DNA of 64,000 bases from Parcubacteria group bacterium GW2011_GWF2_45_11 (lineage in GTDB: Bacteria; Patescibacteriota; Patescibacteriia; UBA1558; UBA10009): positions 8,208 through 72,207 of the forward strand of contig LCKE01000001.1 in assembly GCA_001001205.1 (NCBI GenBank), given 5' to 3'. A model generated the notes under the pieces. It did no database searches. It was given only the letters and a program-made list of their open reading frames with translations, and was not told the DNA's origin. Position 1 is the stretch's first letter. Each line of letters opens with the position of its first letter. Both the position numbers and the translations under genes were made by a program. Positions 9,168 through 54,199 of this stretch are shown here, one piece after another.

Positions 9168-9622
9168 TGAATATACAAGTTATTTTACTTTCAGACGTCA
9201 AGGGTTTGGGTTATAAAGGTGAAGTTAAATCGGTCGCCAAGGGCTACGCCCATAATTTTTTGTTTGCACAAAAGTTAGCCGCCAGACTTAATTCCCCTCA
9301 AGCAGACGAACTAAAATCAAAGCTCATAAGCCAGTCCCAGAAACAACAAACAGCCAAAAAGCAGTCGCTTAAGGCCGCCGACCGCCTGGCTGGCCTCGCC
9401 TTGGAGTTTATTGTTAAAGCTTCAGCGGCCGGGACTTTATTTTCGGGCATCGGCAAAAAAGAAATCGTCAACCGGCTTAAGGGCAAAACCAAAGCGGCGA
9501 TTGCTGAAAAAAACATCCTGCTGGAAAATGACCTGAAAAAATTGGGCGAATACACGGCGCAACTTAAACTTGACCAGCAAGTGGTGGATATTAAAATAAT
9601 CATTAAACAAGATGGTCAATAA
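9167..9622 (+). CDS. rplI: 50S ribosomal protein L9
   Basis: [33 protein letters not shown] is the canonical L9 N-domain. 151 aa. Confidence 0.9.
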
Positions 9623-11303
9623 ATCAACAAAGTACATTTTTGTTTCCGGTGGCGTCTTATCCGGCCTGGGCAAAGGCGTGGTGGCATCTTCACTCGGGTT
9701 TTTGCTGCAAAACAGGGGTTATAACGTCGGTGCCATCAAATGCGAAAATTACATCAATATCGACTCGGGCACGATCAACCCCATTGAACACGGTGATCCT
9801 TTTTTATGCGAAGACGGACTGGAAGCGGACATGGATCTGGGCACTTACGAAAGATTTTTGAACCAGGAAATGGGTCATAAAAATTTTACGACTATGGGCC
9901 AAATTTATAAGACCGTTATAGATCGCGAACGGTCTTTTGGCTATAAGGGCGAAGATGTTGAGGCCATTCCGCACGTTTCCGATGAAATCATTTCCAGAAT
10001 CAAATCGGCCGGGGAAGGCCGGGATATCATTATTATTGAACTCGGGGGCACGGCCGGCGAATATCAAAACATGCTTTATTATGAGGCTTGCCGGATTATG
10101 AAAGCGAAAATGCCCGGCCAGGTTTTAAATATTCACGTCAGCTACGTGCCCTTGCCCAGACATATCGGCGAGCCGAAAACCATGCCTACCCAGCTTTCCA
10201 TCAAGACCGTTATGAGCATGGGCATTATGCCGGAATTTTTGGTTTTAAGGTCGGAAGCCGTTCTGGATAAGCGCCGTCGCTATTTATTGGGCTTAAAAAC
10301 CAGCGTTTCCGGCGATAACGTGATCATGGCGCCTGATTTGGATACCATTTATGAATTACCGCTCATTTTTGCCAAGCAAAACCTTGATCGCAATGTTTTA
10401 AAATATTTCGGCCTGAATTTACGCCAGCCTGCCTTGGGCGCGTGGAAAAAAATGATCCGCAATATCCAGTCAAAAAAGAAGAAGCAAATTCAGATTGTCA
10501 TCGCTGGCAAATACATCGCCACCGGCGATTATGAATTGTTGGATTCGTACGCTTCTTTAATTGAGGCAATTAAGCACGCCTGCTGGCACCTGAACATTGA
10601 GCTTAAGCTGAAGTTTGTCAATACCGAGGATCTGGAACAGCAGGGCGTAAAATTATTAGGCAAGCCCGACGGCCTGATCGTGCCAATCGGCTGGGGCAGC
10701 CGGGGAGCAGAAGGTAAAATCATAGCAATTAAGTTTGCCAGGGAAAAAAAGATACCGTATCTCGGACTGTGTTACGGTATGCAGTTGGCCTGCGTTGAAT
10801 TTGCTCGCAACGTCGTCGGCTTAACCGGGGCCAACAGCGTGGAAATCAATCCCGACACGCCTTATCCGATCATTCATGATATCCCGATGAACGAAAAATA
10901 TCAGCTAATTAAGGGCCAGGGCACCTCCATGAGGCTGGGGGCTTATGATTGCTATTTAAAAAATGATTCGTTGGCCGCTGCTATTTACAATAAACACCGG
11001 CAAGCGGAAATTTTAACACCCAGCCAGATAAAAAGCCAGAACGTCAAGGCTAAAGGCAATGTTAAAATCTCGGAGCGCCACCGCCATCGTTATGAATTCA
11101 ACAATGCTTTTAGGGAGCAACTGGAAAAGGCGGGACTGGTAATTTCCGGAACCTCCAAGGACGATTTTTTCGTGGAGATGGTTGAGTTGCCAAAATCCAT
11201 TCATCCATTCTTTTTGGCCACCCAGGGGCACCCTGAATACAAATCAAATCCGCTAAAGCCTCATCCGGTGTTTATTGAATTTATCAAGGCCGGTTTAAAA
11301 TAA
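9612..11303 (+). CDS. pyrG: CTP synthase
   Basis: 563 aa. N-terminal synthase domain ([20 protein letters not shown]) and C-terminal glutamine amidotransferase with GLCYGMQ. Confidence 0.95.
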
Positions 11304-11324
11304 ATTCAGCCCTGATAATTTTTG

Positions 11325-11353
11325 TTGACTTTTTTTGAATTCGGTTGTAGAAT
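11325..11353 (+). promoter_or_regulatory. near-consensus sigma70-type promoter (TTGACT-17 bp-TAGAAT) reading into the noncoding gap
   Basis: TTGACT at 11325-11330, a 17-nt spacer, and TAGAAT at 11348-11353, directly downstream of the pyrG stop. Confidence 0.5.
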
Positions 11354-11371
11354 TTTTTTTATTCTGAAGAT

Positions 11372-11416
11372 TTTGTCAGACGGGAAGAAAAGAAAAGTAT
11401 TTTGGATAAATATCGT
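11372..11416 (+). repeat. 45-bp direct repeat, copy 1 (GGGAAGAAAAGAAAAGTATTTTGGATAAATATCGTTCGGGGATCG)
   Basis: 44 of 45 nt identical to 11651-11695. Confidence 0.85.
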
Positions 11417-11650
11417 TCGGGGATCGCCTCGTAATGATTAGAAAAAAAGCGATTTATGCAGTATTATGTTTATATTCTTATAAGTCATGTTAAGCTCCGC
11501 TGGTCTTATGTCGGCAGTACTTCCACCACAAGTATGGTAAAGTGCAATCAACCAAAGCTTTTAGGCCTTTGGAGTTAGCTTATTTTGAAAAGTGCGATAG
11601 CAGGATTAAAGCATATGAAAGAGAGCTTTACCTAAAAACCGGCTTGGGCC

Positions 11651-11695
11651 GGGAAGAAAAGAAAAGTATTTTAGATAAATATCGTTCGGGGATCG
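11651..11695 (+). repeat. 45-bp direct repeat, copy 2, running directly into the T-arm/CCA module
   Basis: Differs from copy 1 by a single G/A substitution. Confidence 0.85.
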
Positions 11696-11827
11696 GGGTT
11701 CGAATCCCTGTCCCCGAGCCAAATTTTATGTTGCGGGTTTATTGCCTCGTCGTAGCCTCGAAAATATTTTGAACTATTTTTAAAAGCATTGAGTTAAAAT
11801 TTAATGTTTTTAAATTTTTGGAACAGT

Positions 11828-28716: not shown

Positions 28717-31524
28717 ATGAATCTTTTGAACAAAATTTTCGGCGACGGCAACGAAAAATATTTAAAAAGCCTGCAGCCGCCAATTGAAAAAATTAACACT
28801 CTGGAAAAATCATACGCTGATTTATCTCAGGCGGATTTAAAAGCCAAGGCTAAAGACTTAAAGCGTGTTGTCGCCGGTGGAAAAGCCTTGGACGATATTT
28901 TACCCGAAGCTTTCGCCCTGGTCAGGGAAGCGGCCAAGCGTACCCTTAACCAAAAGCATTACGATGTCCAGCTGATTGGCGGCTTGGTTTTGCATCAGGG
29001 CGGCATTGCGGAGATGAAAACCGGGGAAGGCAAAACGTTGGTGGCCACCCTGCCGGCGTTTCTTAACGCCCTCGCCGGCAAAGGCGTTCATGTTATTACC
29101 GTTAACGATTATCTGTCACGGCGCGACATGGTCTGGATGGGTCAAATTTACAACTATTTAGGCCTGTCCGTCAGCTGTCTGCAACACGACAGCGCTTTTT
29201 TGTATGACGAAACATTCGCCGCCGATCAAAAAAGCGAAGAAGAGCGCGATCGCGGCGTGGTGGTGCCGGAAAAATTTTTAAAGCCGGCTAGCCGTAAGGA
29301 GGCTTATTTGGCCGATATTACTTACGGCACCAACAACGAATTCGGTTTTGATTACTTAAGGGACAATATGGTCCAGCAGGCCTCCGGCATGGTCCAACGC
29401 GGGCTTAATTACGCCATTATTGACGAAGTTGATTCCATTTTAATAGACGAAGCCCGCACCCCTCTGATTATTTCGGCGCCGGCCGAAGAGTCAACGGATA
29501 AGTACTATCAGTTTGCCAAGCTGGTCAGGATTTTAAATGAAACCGCAGATTACAATATTGACGAAAAGTTGCGGGCCTGTAGCTTAACCGAAGAGGGAAT
29601 TACCAAAATAGAAAAATCTTTGGGCGTGGAAAACATTTACGAATCCCACGGCTTAAGCATTGTCCATCATCTGGAAGAAGCCCTGAAAGCGGAAACTATT
29701 TTTAAGCGCGACCGCGATTACGTGGTCAAGGACGGCGAGGTCATTATCGTGGACGAATTCACCGGCCGCTTAATGTTCGGCCGGCGCTATTCCGGCGGCC
29801 TGCATCAGGCAATTGAAGCCAAAGAAGGGGTTAAAATCCAGCGCGAAAGCGTGACCATGGCCACGATTACTTTTCAAAACTATTTTAGAATGTACCCCAA
29901 GCTGGCAGGCATGACCGGCACGGCCGCCACTGAAGCGGAAGAGTTCGCTAAAATTTACAATCTGGACGTCACGGTCATCCCCACCAACAAGCCGATGATC
30001 AGAAAGGATTCAAACGATCGCATTTATAAAAACGAGGCGGGCAAATTTACCGCCGCGGTCAAGGAAATTAAAGAGCGGAACCAAAAAGGCCAGCCGGTTT
30101 TAATCGGCACCATTTCCATAGAAAAAAACGAGCTGCTTTCTCAATTTCTGAGCCGCGAGGGCATCAGGCATGAACTGTTGAACGCCAAAAACCATGCCCG
30201 TGAAGCGGAAATTTTGGCCCAAGCCGGGCGCCCGGGCGCCGTTACTCTGGCCACCAACATGGCCGGGCGCGGCGTGGACATAATTTTAGGCGGCAATCCG
30301 GTTAATCAGGCCGAGCAACAAAAAGTGATCGCGGCCGGAGGTTTGCACGTTATCGGCACCGAACGCCACGAATCCAGAAGAATAGATAACCAGTTAAGGG
30401 GGCGTTCCGGCCGGCAGGGGGATCCCGGCTCCAGCCAATTTTTTGTCTGCTTAGACGATGATCTCATGAGAATTTTTGGCTCCGACCGAATGAAAAGCCT
30501 GATGAACACCCTCAAAGTTCCGGAAGACCTGCCCATTGAAAACCGGCTGATTTCCAAATCCATTGAGTCAGCGCAAAAGCGAGTGGAAGGCAACAACTTT
30601 GACATCAGAAAACACCTGGTGGAATATGATGACGTTTTAAACAAGCAAAGAACCGCCATTTACAGGAAACGGCGACTGATTCTTGATCTGGCGGAGGGTC
30701 AACATAAACTAAACGCCAACCAGCAACCAGCTGTGCCAAAAAATGTTCTGGAGGCAGACGCTAAAACAGAACAGAACGAGCCGGCCAAATACCGCGACAC
30801 CCGCGAAATTGTCTTAGATTATGTCAACCGCGAAATTGAACAGATTGTTGACGTTCACTTAGCCGAAAACAGCGAAAGTCCTGAAAAAATTTTTGAAAGC
30901 CTGGAGACGATTTGCCCATTCAATCAGCCGGAAAAAGATTTAATCGGCAAAAGCCTGGCTAAAAATCCGGCGGCGGTTGTCAATCAAATACAGGATTTAG
31001 CCAAAGAAAAATATGTACAAATGGAAGAGTCCATTAGCCATCTGCCCCAGCTGGTGAAGCAAAAAGAACCATTAAGGCAACTGGAAAAATATCTTTTACT
31101 CAGAACAATAGATTCCTTATGGATTGAGCATCTGGAAGCGATTGAGCATTTAAGAACTGGCATCGGCTTAAGGGGCTATGGCCAGCGCGAGCCTTTGATT
31201 GAATATAAAAAAGAATCGTTTCTTTTGTTTCAGCAGCTCTTAAGCCTGATTCAGGAACAGGTGGCACGCTCCATTTTTAAGATGGGTTTGGCGGCCACCG
31301 TGCCGCTGGCTAACCAGCCGCGGGGAATTCAACAGATAAAATCCAGCCTCAGCCAATTTAACCGTCCGGCCGAAAAAAATCAGGCAGACAACTCGGCTCA
31401 AGGGGTCAGCGGCAAAATTAAAGATGTCAGCGGCCATAAAATCGGGCGCAACGATCCCTGCCCGTGCGGCGCGACCAAGGCGGACGGAAGCCCGGTTAAA
31501 TACAAGCATTGCCACGGCCAGTAA
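28717..31524 (+). CDS. secA: preprotein translocase ATPase SecA
   Basis: Canonical start MNLLNKIFGDGNEKYL. Walker A MKTGEGKT, DEVDSILIDEARTPLIIS, and a C-terminal zinc finger CPCGA...KHCHG. Confidence 0.95.
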   Translation: MNLLNKIFGDGNEKYLKSLQPPIEKINTLEKSYADLSQADLKAKAKDLKRVVAGGKALDDILPEAFALVREAAKRTLNQKHYDVQLIGGLVLHQGGIAEMKTGEGKTLVATLPAFLNALAGKGVHVITVNDYLSRRDMVWMGQIYNYLGLSVSCLQHDSAFLYDETFAADQKSEEERDRGVVVPEKFLKPASRKEAYLADITYGTNNEFGFDYLRDNMVQQASGMVQRGLNYAIIDEVDSILIDEARTPLIISAPAEESTDKYYQFAKLVRILNETADYNIDEKLRACSLTEEGITKIEKSLGVENIYESHGLSIVHHLEEALKAETIFKRDRDYVVKDGEVIIVDEFTGRLMFGRRYSGGLHQAIEAKEGVKIQRESVTMATITFQNYFRMYPKLAGMTGTAATEAEEFAKIYNLDVTVIPTNKPMIRKDSNDRIYKNEAGKFTAAVKEIKERNQKGQPVLIGTISIEKNELLSQFLSREGIRHELLNAKNHAREAEILAQAGRPGAVTLATNMAGRGVDIILGGNPVNQAEQQKVIAAGGLHVIGTERHESRRIDNQLRGRSGRQGDPGSSQFFVCLDDDLMRIFGSDRMKSLMNTLKVPEDLPIENRLISKSIESAQKRVEGNNFDIRKHLVEYDDVLNKQRTAIYRKRRLILDLAEGQHKLNANQQPAVPKNVLEADAKTEQNEPAKYRDTREIVLDYVNREIEQIVDVHLAENSESPEKIFESLETICPFNQPEKDLIGKSLAKNPAAVVNQIQDLAKEKYVQMEESISHLPQLVKQKEPLRQLEKYLLLRTIDSLWIEHLEAIEHLRTGIGLRGYGQREPLIEYKKESFLLFQQLLSLIQEQVARSIFKMGLAATVPLANQPRGIQQIKSSLSQFNRPAEKNQADNSAQGVSGKIKDVSGHKIGRNDPCPCGATKADGSPVKYKHCHGQ

Positions 31525-33348: not shown

Positions 33349-34674
33349 ATGAAGCTAAAATTGCTTTTAACCCTGCTTACTTTTTTAATCCCGCTACAAC
33401 TGCTGGCCCGGACGGAAAATCCGGAAATCAGGGTTTTTGATTTTGAGGGCACCCTTTTAAAAACGATCAGCCTTAAAAATTACGGCTGGACCCAAACCGG
33501 AGACATTAAAGTAGCTGACCTTGGAACAGACGGCGTGCCGGAAATAATTTTGAGCGCTCCGGCCGGCGCCAAACCCTATATAAAAATTTACCGCTTGGAC
33601 GGTAGCCCGATTAATGAATTGCTGATTTATCCCGAGGCTTACTTGGGCGGGATCAACTTGGAAATCGCCGATCTTGACCAGGACGGCTATAAAGAAATCA
33701 TTACCGGCGCCACTTTTGGCGGCGGGCCGCATGTCATAATCCTTGACAGTCAGGGGCAAGTTATTAAGTCTTTTTTTGCTTTTGACCTGCTGGATAAGGG
33801 GGGAGTTAATGTCAGCGCCGGCAATCTTTACGGCGATGACAATCTGGAAATCGTAGTCAGCTCCAACGCCCATAACTACGTTAGGGTTTTTGATTCCGGC
33901 GGTAAAATCCTAAACGGCTTTGAGCTTAAAAACAGTTTTACCAATGGGCAAAAAATTGCGACTTTTGACCTGGGCTTAGACGGCCTGGCCGAAATCATCA
34001 CATACTCTAACGCCAGCGACCGGCCATACCTTAATCTTTACAACAACTACGGCGAGAGGCTTAACTCATTTTTGGTCTTTAACGAAAATTTTAGCGGCGG
34101 TTTTAACTTTGACTATCAGGGCTACCAGCTGTTTTTAGGCGCCGGCTTTGGCGGCGGGCCCCATCTTAAAATCGTTGACGGCTACACCAACACCATCAGC
34201 CAGTTTTTTACCGCCGAGCAAAACTTTTTAGGCGGCGTAATGTTCGCGGTTTATAATGATAAAATTTATACCCTGGCTGAACGTTTTGCCACGGCCGTTA
34301 TGCCGGAGAGCCAATATATTTTAATTGATCTTTCCGAACAAAAATTAAAATACTTCCGCGACGGATTTGCCATTTTTGACGAATCAATTTCTTCCGGCAC
34401 GGATTTTTACCCCACACCCGTTGGCCAATATCAAATTCTCAGCAAATCGCCCCTGGCCTATTCTTACACCTACGGCCTGTACATGCCCTTTTGGATGAAC
34501 TTTTATGCCAATTACGGAATTCATGAACTGCCTTACTGGCCTTCCGGCTACCGCGAGGGCGAAAGCCATTTAGGCACTAAAGTCTCTCATGGCTGCGTCC
34601 GCTTGGGCCTTGGCGCCGCGGAAAAATTATATAACCTGGCGACCATCGGCACTAAAGTTTATATTGAGGAATAG
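33349..34674 (+). CDS. secreted FG-GAP/VCBS-repeat protein with C-terminal L,D-transpeptidase (YkuD) domain
   Basis: Signal peptide. Repeats of the DLDQDGYKEIITGATFGGGPHV type. C-terminal L,D-transpeptidase signature SHGCVRL. Confidence 0.7.
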   Translation: MKLKLLLTLLTFLIPLQLLARTENPEIRVFDFEGTLLKTISLKNYGWTQTGDIKVADLGTDGVPEIILSAPAGAKPYIKIYRLDGSPINELLIYPEAYLGGINLEIADLDQDGYKEIITGATFGGGPHVIILDSQGQVIKSFFAFDLLDKGGVNVSAGNLYGDDNLEIVVSSNAHNYVRVFDSGGKILNGFELKNSFTNGQKIATFDLGLDGLAEIITYSNASDRPYLNLYNNYGERLNSFLVFNENFSGGFNFDYQGYQLFLGAGFGGGPHLKIVDGYTNTISQFFTAEQNFLGGVMFAVYNDKIYTLAERFATAVMPESQYILIDLSEQKLKYFRDGFAIFDESISSGTDFYPTPVGQYQILSKSPLAYSYTYGLYMPFWMNFYANYGIHELPYWPSGYREGESHLGTKVSHGCVRLGLGAAEKLYNLATIGTKVYIEE

Positions 34675-49172: not shown

Positions 49173-49265
49173 AAAATTTCCGCGGCCTTAAGCGGAATTT
49201 TTTTATGATATAAAAAAAGATGTAGTCTGCCCGCCCGTTAGTCAAAAATCATGTGCCTCTTTCTT

Positions 49266-49431
49266 GTCATTTCGGCCGAGGACAAACTTTAGTGAGGACG
49301 AGTGCCTGCCTGCGCAAAGCTGTTGCTTCGCTACGGCTATAGCAGGGAGAAATCCCTCGTGTCCTGGCTTATAATCAAGAGATTTCTCCGCTCGTTCGCC
49401 ATTAGGCTCACTCGGTTGAAATGACAAACAA
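49266..49431 (+). repeat. ~170-nt repeated intergenic element, copy B
   Basis: See copy A. Forms an inverted pair with copy C at 54103-54199. Confidence 0.6.
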
Positions 49432-54055: not shown

Positions 54056-54102
54056 TAACCCGTAACAAATAATCAAAAAATCAATTTCTTGCTTTAAACT
54101 AA

Positions 54103-54199
54103 GGGATTTCTCCCTGCCATAGCCGTAGCGAAGCAACAGCTTTGCGCAGGCAGGCGCTCGTCCTCACTAAAGTTTGTCTTCGGTCAAAATGACAAACAA
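54103..54199 (-). repeat. repeated intergenic element, copy C (core only, inverted orientation)
   Basis: The reverse complement matches the 49266-49362 core of copy B with only a few mismatches. Confidence 0.6.

Follow-up and report, generated by a model that had tools for sequence, protein, structure and literature searches.

Integrative elements that target transfer RNA (tRNA) or transfer-messenger RNA (tmRNA) genes employ tyrosine or serine recombinases, usually duplicate the 3' end of the gene they enter, and are kilobases long. A different known kind of tRNA-gene invader, and the one to which the element described here is assigned, is the free-standing GIY-YIG homing endonuclease gene that targets tRNA genes. 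The GIY-YIG homing endonuclease SegB recognizes tRNA genes at a 27-bp site whose 11-bp conserved core is a motif of the T-psi-C stem-loop (PMC2330249), and it drives tandem segmental amplification of segB together with tRNA-Tyr via double-strand breaks and recombination (PMC13096335). Group I introns carrying homing endonuclease genes also occur in bacterial tRNA genes, including those of Patescibacteria, and the enzymes reported in that survey were of the HNH, LAGLIDADG and PD-(D/E)XK types, not GIY-YIG (PMC13011429). Here we analyze a 64-kb window (the whole stretch of 64,000 nt) from Parcubacteria group bacterium GW2011_GWF2_45_11, in which the pyrG gene (9612-11303, + strand) is directly followed by a 524-nt gap (11304-11827). 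Our best explanation, to which we assign a probability of roughly 80%, is that this gap is a tRNA-Gln(UUG) unit that has been invaded by a small selfish cassette encoding a GIY-YIG nuclease, and in which both the nuclease gene and the tRNA gene have been inactivated by short deletions. The original prediction for the gap had treated it as noncoding, and had proposed a divergent tmRNA (ssrA) of the candidate phyla radiation (CPR), a tRNA-like 3' tag on another noncoding RNA or, as a fallback, a tRNA-fragment remnant accompanied by a mobile-element duplication.

The evidence that carries our explanation comes from other alleles of the same locus. Conspecific contigs were found by exact look-up, in NCBI, JGI and ENA, of the products of pyrG and of the downstream gene encoding a 98-amino-acid (aa) protein; the pyrG product is recorded under Parcubacteria GW2011_GWA2_43_17, and the cluster members under Candidatus Komeilibacteria (CPR). 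Apart from the gap, these contigs (contigs and loci used for comparison carry L numbers) are 99.8-100% identical to the window over ~7.6 kb. The gap itself varies in size within the species (584, 661, 687 and 947 nt, against 524 nt in the window), and its usual length in conspecifics is 584 nt. Alignment revealed that the window lacks exactly two segments, one of 22 nt (ATTTAATTTCAAGATTTCAAGA, at 11525|11526) and one of 38 nt (at 11695|11696). The 22-nt segment is kept in 12 of 12 conspecific contigs covering that part, and a full tRNA is present in 14 of the 14 distinct conspecific contigs that cover the tRNA. With both segments restored, the gap contains a complete 74-nt tRNA-Gln(UUG), called by ARAGORN as tRNA-Gln(ttg) in L001-L007 and scoring 59 bits with Rfam RF00005 in L004 and L005, as well as an 88-aa GIY-YIG open reading frame (ORF) that begins at the ATG at 11456. 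The two genes are fused, in that the last 14 nt of the ORF including its stop (...TCG GGG ATC GTC TAG) are nt 1-14 of the tRNA. The order of the common allele is promoter, 46-nt relic, 29-nt leader, 88-aa ORF, and intact tRNA-Gln.

The 22-nt deletion introduces a frameshift and removes residues that include the invariant Arg28, leaving residues 1-24 and 25-87 of the nuclease in different frames (two-frame tblastn, E = 8e-38). Because it is frameshifted and lacks R28, the window copy of this UPF0213/YhbQ-type GIY-YIG gene (11456-11700, + strand, delimited from its ATG by alignment to L004 and two-frame tblastn) is a pseudogene. The description of the gap as noncoding is accordingly correct insofar as 11304-11827 holds no intact ORF, but it overlooked the frameshifted gene inside. 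The 38-nt deletion removes nt 11-48 of the tRNA in linear numbering, comprising the D arm, anticodon arm and variable loop, as well as the original stop of the ORF, and joins tRNA nt 1-10 to the T arm. The product is an internally deleted tRNA-Gln(UUG) of 36 of 74 nt (TCGGGGATCGGGGTTCGAATCCCTGTCCCCGAGCCA, 11686-11721, + strand; boundaries by alignment), and it is this module that had been noticed as a minihelix ending in CCA. It does fold in that way, an acceptor stem of 7 bp stacking on a T arm of 5 bp with G and CCA next in line (-22 kcal/mol, z = -3.2), and its discriminator G73, U1-A72 pair, and G-C pair at position 3 are as in tRNA-Gln. This copy is also a pseudogene, since it keeps fewer than half of the tRNA nucleotides, yields no tRNA match, and is complete at the orthologous position in 14 conspecifics. 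The original prediction had rightly found no full cloverleaf in the window, while the supposed tRNA-like tag on another noncoding RNA turns out to be a tRNA gene minus 38 internal bases.

The gap also contains a direct repeat of 46 nt whose copies are identical at 45 of 46 positions, far beyond chance; the repeat had been recognized before, with its first copy placed (11372-11416) about 10 nt too far to the left. Copy 1 (11381-11426, + strand) consists of the last 36 nt of the GIY-YIG ORF (11381-11416), matching nuclease residues 73-88 by tblastn, followed by tRNA-Gln nt 1-10 (11417-11426), and in copy 2 (11650-11695, + strand) the ORF's genuine 3' end (11650-11685) continues into tRNA-Gln nt 1-10 (11686-11695). 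Copy 1 is preceded by the promoter leader and followed by the leader of the cassette itself (CCTCGTAATG...); comparison with tandem alleles places the left end of the cassette and its 29-nt 5' leader (CCTCGTAATGATTAGAAAAAAAGCGATTT) at 11427-11455 (+ strand). In L005 and L001, two complete cassettes lie in tandem, split by a remnant of an old tRNA (nt 1-43), and at the middle junction of L005, CCTCGTAATG directly follows tRNA nt 43 (GGTCCTAG). Because these two alleles hold full tandem cassettes, we interpret copy 1 as the stump of an older cassette. The fallback of the original prediction was right in spirit, although the scar is not an integrase attachment site: the duplicated part is the 3' end of the nuclease ORF plus tRNA nt 1-10, and the tRNA fragment is the resident gene itself. 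Two short words that had been likened to tmRNA motifs, GACGGGA (11379-11385) and GCCTCGTAA (11426-11434), are both present; the former spans the left edge of copy 1, and the latter is the join of tRNA nt 10 and the cassette leader. Judged by sequence, both are junctions between cassette pieces and are unrelated to tmRNA.

A sigma-70-type promoter-like site, TTGACT-17-TAGAAT, is found at 11325-11353 (+ strand) with 10 of 12 matches, as originally predicted. In a cassette-free relative (L138), TTGACA-17-TATTAT stands at the equivalent distance after pyrG, 19 nt before tRNA-Gln. The site in the window is probably the original tRNA-Gln promoter, which would now also drive the cassette. As a further observation, downstream of tRNA-Gln in L003 there is an extra insertion of ~100 nt (L003:5171-5380) that contains a hairpin, another 3' end of tRNA-Gln (CCTGTCCCCGAGCCA) and, in diverged form, the downstream flank once more; it represents a separate duplication, on the 3' side of the same tRNA.

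The intact 88-aa conspecific protein matches the Pfam GIY-YIG domain (PF01541; 49.3 bits, E = 6e-13) over residues 2-73 of 88, and Y6, Y18, G20, R28, H32 and E64 are invariant in 16 homologues, many of which also share the protein tail ...SGIV. The nearest solved structures in profile searches were PDB 1zg2 (E = 2.6e-9) and 1ywl (E = 1.4e-7), with SLX1 at 0.009. By sequence comparison, the protein belongs to the GIY-YIG nucleases of the UPF0213/YhbQ branch. The intact protein has no match in NCBIfam or PHROGs, no further match in Pfam, NCBIfam or PHROGs that would represent a DNA-binding module, and no tblastn match among 50,697 phage records.

With one genome scanned per species, 308 tblastn-confirmed loci were recovered, and the counts given here are from the best 80 of these 308. 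The stop of the ORF lies 9-30 nt inside a tRNA gene on the same strand in 28 of the 80 loci, and in 4 further loci a tRNA starts no more than 27 nt after the stop. A wider criterion, under which the tRNA could start up to 40 nt before or 60 nt after the last base of the stop codon, admitted 34 loci; in 31 of them the 5' part of that tRNA is present again as a partial copy, mostly 100% identical to the intact one, 30-170 nt upstream of the ORF. The mirror-image arrangement, in which an intact tRNA is followed by the ORF and a 3' partial copy, also exists. Among the ten closest relatives, nine overlap tRNA-Gln by 14-15 nt (in the tenth, L018, a stop codon interrupts the reading frame), and the tRNAs occupied in other clades are tRNA-Arg, Ser, Gly, Val, Ala or Ile. 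Several species have tandem arrays (L037, L043, L016 and L060 among them), and the hosts are bacterial chromosomes of CPR, Bacteroidota, Nitrospirota and other groups. Rfam searches of 40 related loci returned only tRNAs, one signal recognition particle RNA, and one group I intron, the last on a viral contig.

Relatives of the window species, whose pyrG genes are 69-80% identical to that of the window species, also provide empty sites: in L138 (pyrG 80% identical) and L145, pyrG is followed by the promoter and tRNA-Gln without a cassette, and another relative, L139, has a different GIY-YIG gene with tRNA-Gln remnants on its flanks. Since relatives with pyrG, the promoter and tRNA-Gln alone exist, the cassette was inserted into a tRNA-Gln unit that already existed, at a position downstream of the unit's promoter. 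The empty sites, the tandem arrays and the polymorphism within the population suggest a homing-type selfish cassette whose closest counterpart would be SegB of phage T4; duplication of part of the target in 31 of 34 loci and the clade-specific choice of tRNA lend this further, indirect support. A family of nuclease cassettes inside tRNA genes is apparently widespread and undescribed; full-text literature searches turned up no account of an architecture in which GIY-YIG ORFs are joined to bacterial tRNA genes and accompanied by partial tRNA copies.

A Patescibacteria sister clade of small GIY-YIG genes was observed alongside this family. Its loci (L021, L029, L039, L040, L042, L049, L053, L054, L063, L067, L072-L077, L084 and L089) have no tRNA nearby and are bracketed by a terminal inverted repeat of 13-16 nt (ATGAATCCCGTTAGAGAT ... 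ATCTCTAACGGGATGA). The ORF's TGA shares bases with the ATG of the host gene that follows, and a copy of ATGAA is found at the left end, an arrangement that looks like insertion exactly at start codons. Solo copies of TCTCTAACGGGG are located near the L040, L072 and L073 loci.

GC-rich hairpins usually interrupt the loops of the partial tRNA copies in the tRNA-associated cassettes. One of them, a perfect 20-nt palindrome (CCTGCCTGCCGGCAGGCAGG), has the same sequence in loci on Patescibacteria tRNA-Gln, where it lies in the anticodon after nt 35, and on Bacteroidota tRNA-Arg, where it lies in the D loop; in L035, from the Bacteroidota isolate Pedobacter cryophilus, it occupies the T loop of a 3' remnant, and in the middle remnant of L005 it occurs twice. 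The loci with this palindrome are L010-L018, L022, L035, L037, L043, L046, L070, L005 and L001, and the proteins at palindrome loci are only 40-60% identical to that of the window species. The palindrome is absent from the window, and its sequence was not found in the searchable full-text literature. Other clades carry other hairpins (L025, L052, L024, L082, L050, L027, L038 and L079, and L044, L062, L020, L032, L026 and L036): GTCGCC-N3-4-GGCGAC replaces the anticodon arm in the Ala/Val/Ile/Gly/Pro clades, and the Ser clades have CCCGCC..GCGGG plus TCCGCC-(UUCG/UACG-like loop)-GGCGGA ahead of the ATG. The hairpins could split the direct repeat into pieces too short for recombination, could destroy the nuclease site in the displaced copy, or could have a function at the RNA level, and the UNCG-type loops are a hint of the last of these.

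The palindrome is also present in 35 viral loci (L100-L134), mostly in GC-rich intergenic repeats without this nuclease or a tRNA nearby, and the idea that it is a strict companion of the nuclease was rejected because most of these viral loci lack the nuclease. The exceptions are L131, which has a partial tRNA and a GIY-YIG gene, and L101 and L124, in which the palindrome lies inside a phage tRNA-Met. In L131 (454-1416 of viral contig IMGVR_UViG_3300035537_000177), the 5' part of a tRNA with the palindrome in its D loop is followed by the GIY-YIG ORF, and a group I intron (RF00028, 86 bits) lies ~370 nt downstream of the cassette. Elsewhere in the window, a pair of 94-nt intergenic inverted repeats (49264-49357, + strand, and 54102-54195, - strand; 94.7% identical and 4.8 kb apart; TTGTCATTTCGGCCGAGGACAAACTTTAGTGAGGACGAGTGCCTGCCTGCGCAAAGCTG...CAGGGAGAAATCCCT) holds a CCTGCCTGC...GCAGGG half-site that resembles the 20-nt palindrome, and the pair is possibly similar to a miniature inverted-repeat transposable element (MITE).

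Other readings of the locus have to be weighed against an invaded tRNA-Gln unit. A divergent or two-piece CPR tmRNA would have the minihelix as its tRNA-like domain and GACGGGA and GCCTCGTAA as its D-loop analogue and pseudoknot 1 (PK1)/tag region, and it can appeal to a promoter-to-CCA transcript of ~360 nt, near tmRNA length, to the T loop GGTTCGAATCC, to the encoded CCA, and to the two short tmRNA-like words. We nevertheless regard it as having almost no chance of being correct. ARAGORN found no tRNA or tmRNA gene in the whole 64-kb window, Rfam at gathering thresholds gave no match in the window, RF00023 in E-value mode reached 9.7 bits against a gathering score of 47 with the match confined to 13 nt of the T loop, and the permuted-tmRNA models had no match up to E = 10. 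Neither ssrA nor smpB was found in the window. As the original prediction itself acknowledged, there is no G3-U70 pair and no 5' acceptor strand at the transcript start, and the only stretches complementary to TCCCCGA are the one adjoining the T arm on its 5' side (11686-11692) and the one in repeat copy 1. The tmRNA reading is further contradicted by the 14 conspecific contigs in which this position is occupied by a complete tRNA-Gln and a GIY-YIG gene that codes for protein, and by the identity of both words as joins of cassette pieces. Integration of a prophage or island at tRNA-Gln, with the repeats as attL/attR-type scars of a lost integrase element, is very improbable as well. Transfer RNA genes are classic integration sites, and the extra tRNA 3'-end fragment of L003 (CTGTCCCCGAGCCA), ~100 nt downstream, could be such a scar, yet the repeat in the window is the 5' end of the tRNA (nt 1-10) with 36 nt of ORF tail rather than an integrase-duplicated 3' end, the repeated unit is the GIY-YIG cassette itself, complete in tandem in L005, and no integrase is found nearby. 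The surrounding genes are pyrG, rplI, a ctpB-like protease gene and pilMNO, with the gene for the 98-aa protein, on the minus strand, adjoining the gap and heading the pilMNO-like cluster. We also think it unlikely, though less so than the readings above, that the GIY-YIG gene is a conserved host partner of the tRNA, co-transcribed with it and acting in its processing, repair or regulation, with the upstream tRNA pieces as regulatory leaders. The fusion of the ORF end with the tRNA start is conserved across phyla, conserved GC hairpins in the leaders, some with UNCG-like loops, suggest an RNA-level role, and the protein has no DNA-binding domain, all of which would fit a host function. A host partner would not be expected to show such a patchy distribution, with cassette-free tRNA-Gln sites in close relatives, different tRNAs in different clades, and tandem arrays and structural polymorphism within species; moreover, partial duplication of the target is a hallmark of insertion, and loci of the sister clade have terminal inverted repeats on both sides, at gene starts.

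The points that weigh against our own explanation concern both the window allele and the nuclease. All 14 conspecific contigs differ from the window allele, the metagenome contig collection contains no instance of the 38-nt deletion junction, and the two variant ORFs of the allele are not on record by exact look-up. Moreover, loss of a sole tRNA-Gln(UUG) should be lethal, which leaves two options, namely another copy of the gene or an assembly error confined to this locus. The window allele may be a real private variant or a local misassembly. In the latter case the deletions would be an assembly or binning artefact, the strain would have the 584-nt allele or a tandem array, and the minihelix and broken ORF would be artefactual; we consider this a credible possibility, although one that falls well short of even odds. 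Besides the uniqueness of the allele among all contigs examined, it is favored by repeats of ~290-360 nt at the locus, longer than short reads, and by trouble in other assemblies at this place, where L001 has a gap of 100 N and L091 shows an odd partial duplication of 77 nt. Such deletions are not the outcome of simple repeat collapse, however, because microhomology at the junctions amounts to just 1-2 nt and the junctions are not placed between repeats. Elsewhere, ~42 kb of the window align colinearly and with zero gaps to conspecific contigs, which makes the indels specific to this locus and rejects general assembly quality as their cause; given this colinearity, the two deletions are the only indels in the ~50 kb compared. 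Real small deletions are also to be expected at a nuclease-prone, structurally polymorphic locus. As for the nuclease, no tRNA or other Rfam RNA lies near 28 of the 80 homologues, and nuclease activity, a target site and transfer are putative in this family. Sequence-specific homing is not self-evident, because the protein consists of a catalytic domain of ~88 aa only with no evident DNA-binding domain, and it may instead act in a structure-specific manner, as its distant relative SLX1 does. Finally, the adjacent intact tRNA should remain a target, so self-cleavage would have to be tolerated or prevented.

For the invaded tRNA-Gln unit that we favor, we propose the following mechanism. The cassette would be transcribed from the tRNA promoter, and the nuclease would break cassette-free copies of the cognate tRNA gene. 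Repair would then copy the cassette, with the partial tRNA copy and the intact tRNA serving as homology arms, and would restore one intact tRNA while leaving a displaced partial copy; copying of this sort could work in any genome with the conserved tRNA. Renewed cutting of a cassette-bearing allele could lead to tandem arrays, which would decay by deletion to stumps such as repeat copy 1, and the window allele would be such a decay product, most likely non-functional. The overlap of ORF and tRNA also suggests a coupling, in that an RNase P cut at the 5' end of the tRNA would strip the nuclease stop from the mRNA.

Extending this to all of the related loci, we tentatively suggest, with confidence just short of even, a cross-phylum class of mobile cassettes of ~300-360 bp inside tRNA genes. 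As one joint reading, this would mean that each cassette encodes only a catalytic-domain GIY-YIG protein of 85-90 aa whose frame ends inside the tRNA, that each carries a replacement tRNA part so that one intact gene always remains, that the displaced partial tRNA is kept with GC hairpins in its D, anticodon or T loops, and that the tRNA supplies a portable pair of homology arms with which homing could proceed from one genome to an unrelated one; the inverted-repeat sister clade would make the whole UPF0213-like clade mobile elements. If homing by these cassettes is real, they would count among the smallest of autonomous mobile elements, and they would explain recurrent assembly breaks and pseudo-tRNAs beside tRNA genes, supply a function for the uncharacterised UPF0213/YhbQ family, and extend the SegB paradigm, in which tRNA genes are both targeted and amplified, from T-even phages to bacterial chromosomes. 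For annotation, many small ORFs labelled "GIY-YIG nuclease family" or "excinuclease ABC C subunit domain" in genomes of CPR, Bacteroidota, Nitrospirota and other groups are fused to tRNA genes, with partial tRNA copies alongside. For the window itself, a false tmRNA candidate is removed, the exotic-looking noncoding RNA being a broken tRNA and a broken nuclease gene, and a strain without its pyrG-linked tRNA-Gln(UUG), or a local assembly error, is flagged.

One further observation concerns other parts of the window. The secA and ykuD-like genes (29323-29900 and 33500-33609) show insertions or gaps in L197 and L198 relative to the window and L196, and secA is split into two calls in both L197 and L198, which may reflect strain variation or assembly differences.

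Compared with known systems, the protein itself is nearest to the UPF0213/YhbQ/COG2827 proteins (1zg2, BH0048; 1ywl, EF2693), which are its best structure matches and share its size and single-domain build; it differs from them in matching no NCBIfam model, and no established link to tRNA genes was found in the literature for those proteins. The eukaryotic SLX1 is a structure-specific nuclease that requires SLX4, whereas no partner is evident here. Like integrative elements, the cassette inserts into an essential RNA gene, restores it with an element-borne part, and leaves a partial duplicate, but it measures ~300-360 bp, has the GIY-YIG nuclease as its sole gene, and usually duplicates the 5' part. 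Group I introns are likewise mobile insertions in tRNA genes of the same phylum, some with endonuclease genes, and likewise make tRNA genes invisible to standard finders. A group I intron reading of the locus was rejected, in that RF00028 had no match in the window or in the intact alleles L004 and L005 and the tRNA beside the cassette is uninterrupted; the cassette requires no splicing because its replacement tRNA part leaves one uninterrupted tRNA. With SegB, the differences lie in size and setting. SegB has ~220 aa including a DNA-binding region, whereas the protein here has 85-90 aa and only the catalytic domain; SegB is located between tRNA genes, whereas here the ORF stop lies inside the tRNA with a partial tRNA copy on the other side; and the hosts are bacterial chromosomes rather than T-even phages. 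The intact protein also lacks PHROGs and phage tblastn matches, as reported above. The likeness to SegB, which phages T4 and T6 carry as a free-standing gene in their tRNA gene cluster, lies in the GIY-YIG catalytic domain, in a gene situated among tRNA genes, and in the tandem alleles of L005, L001 and L037, which resemble the amplification driven by SegB, an enzyme that promotes its own inheritance together with that of its neighbouring tRNAs.

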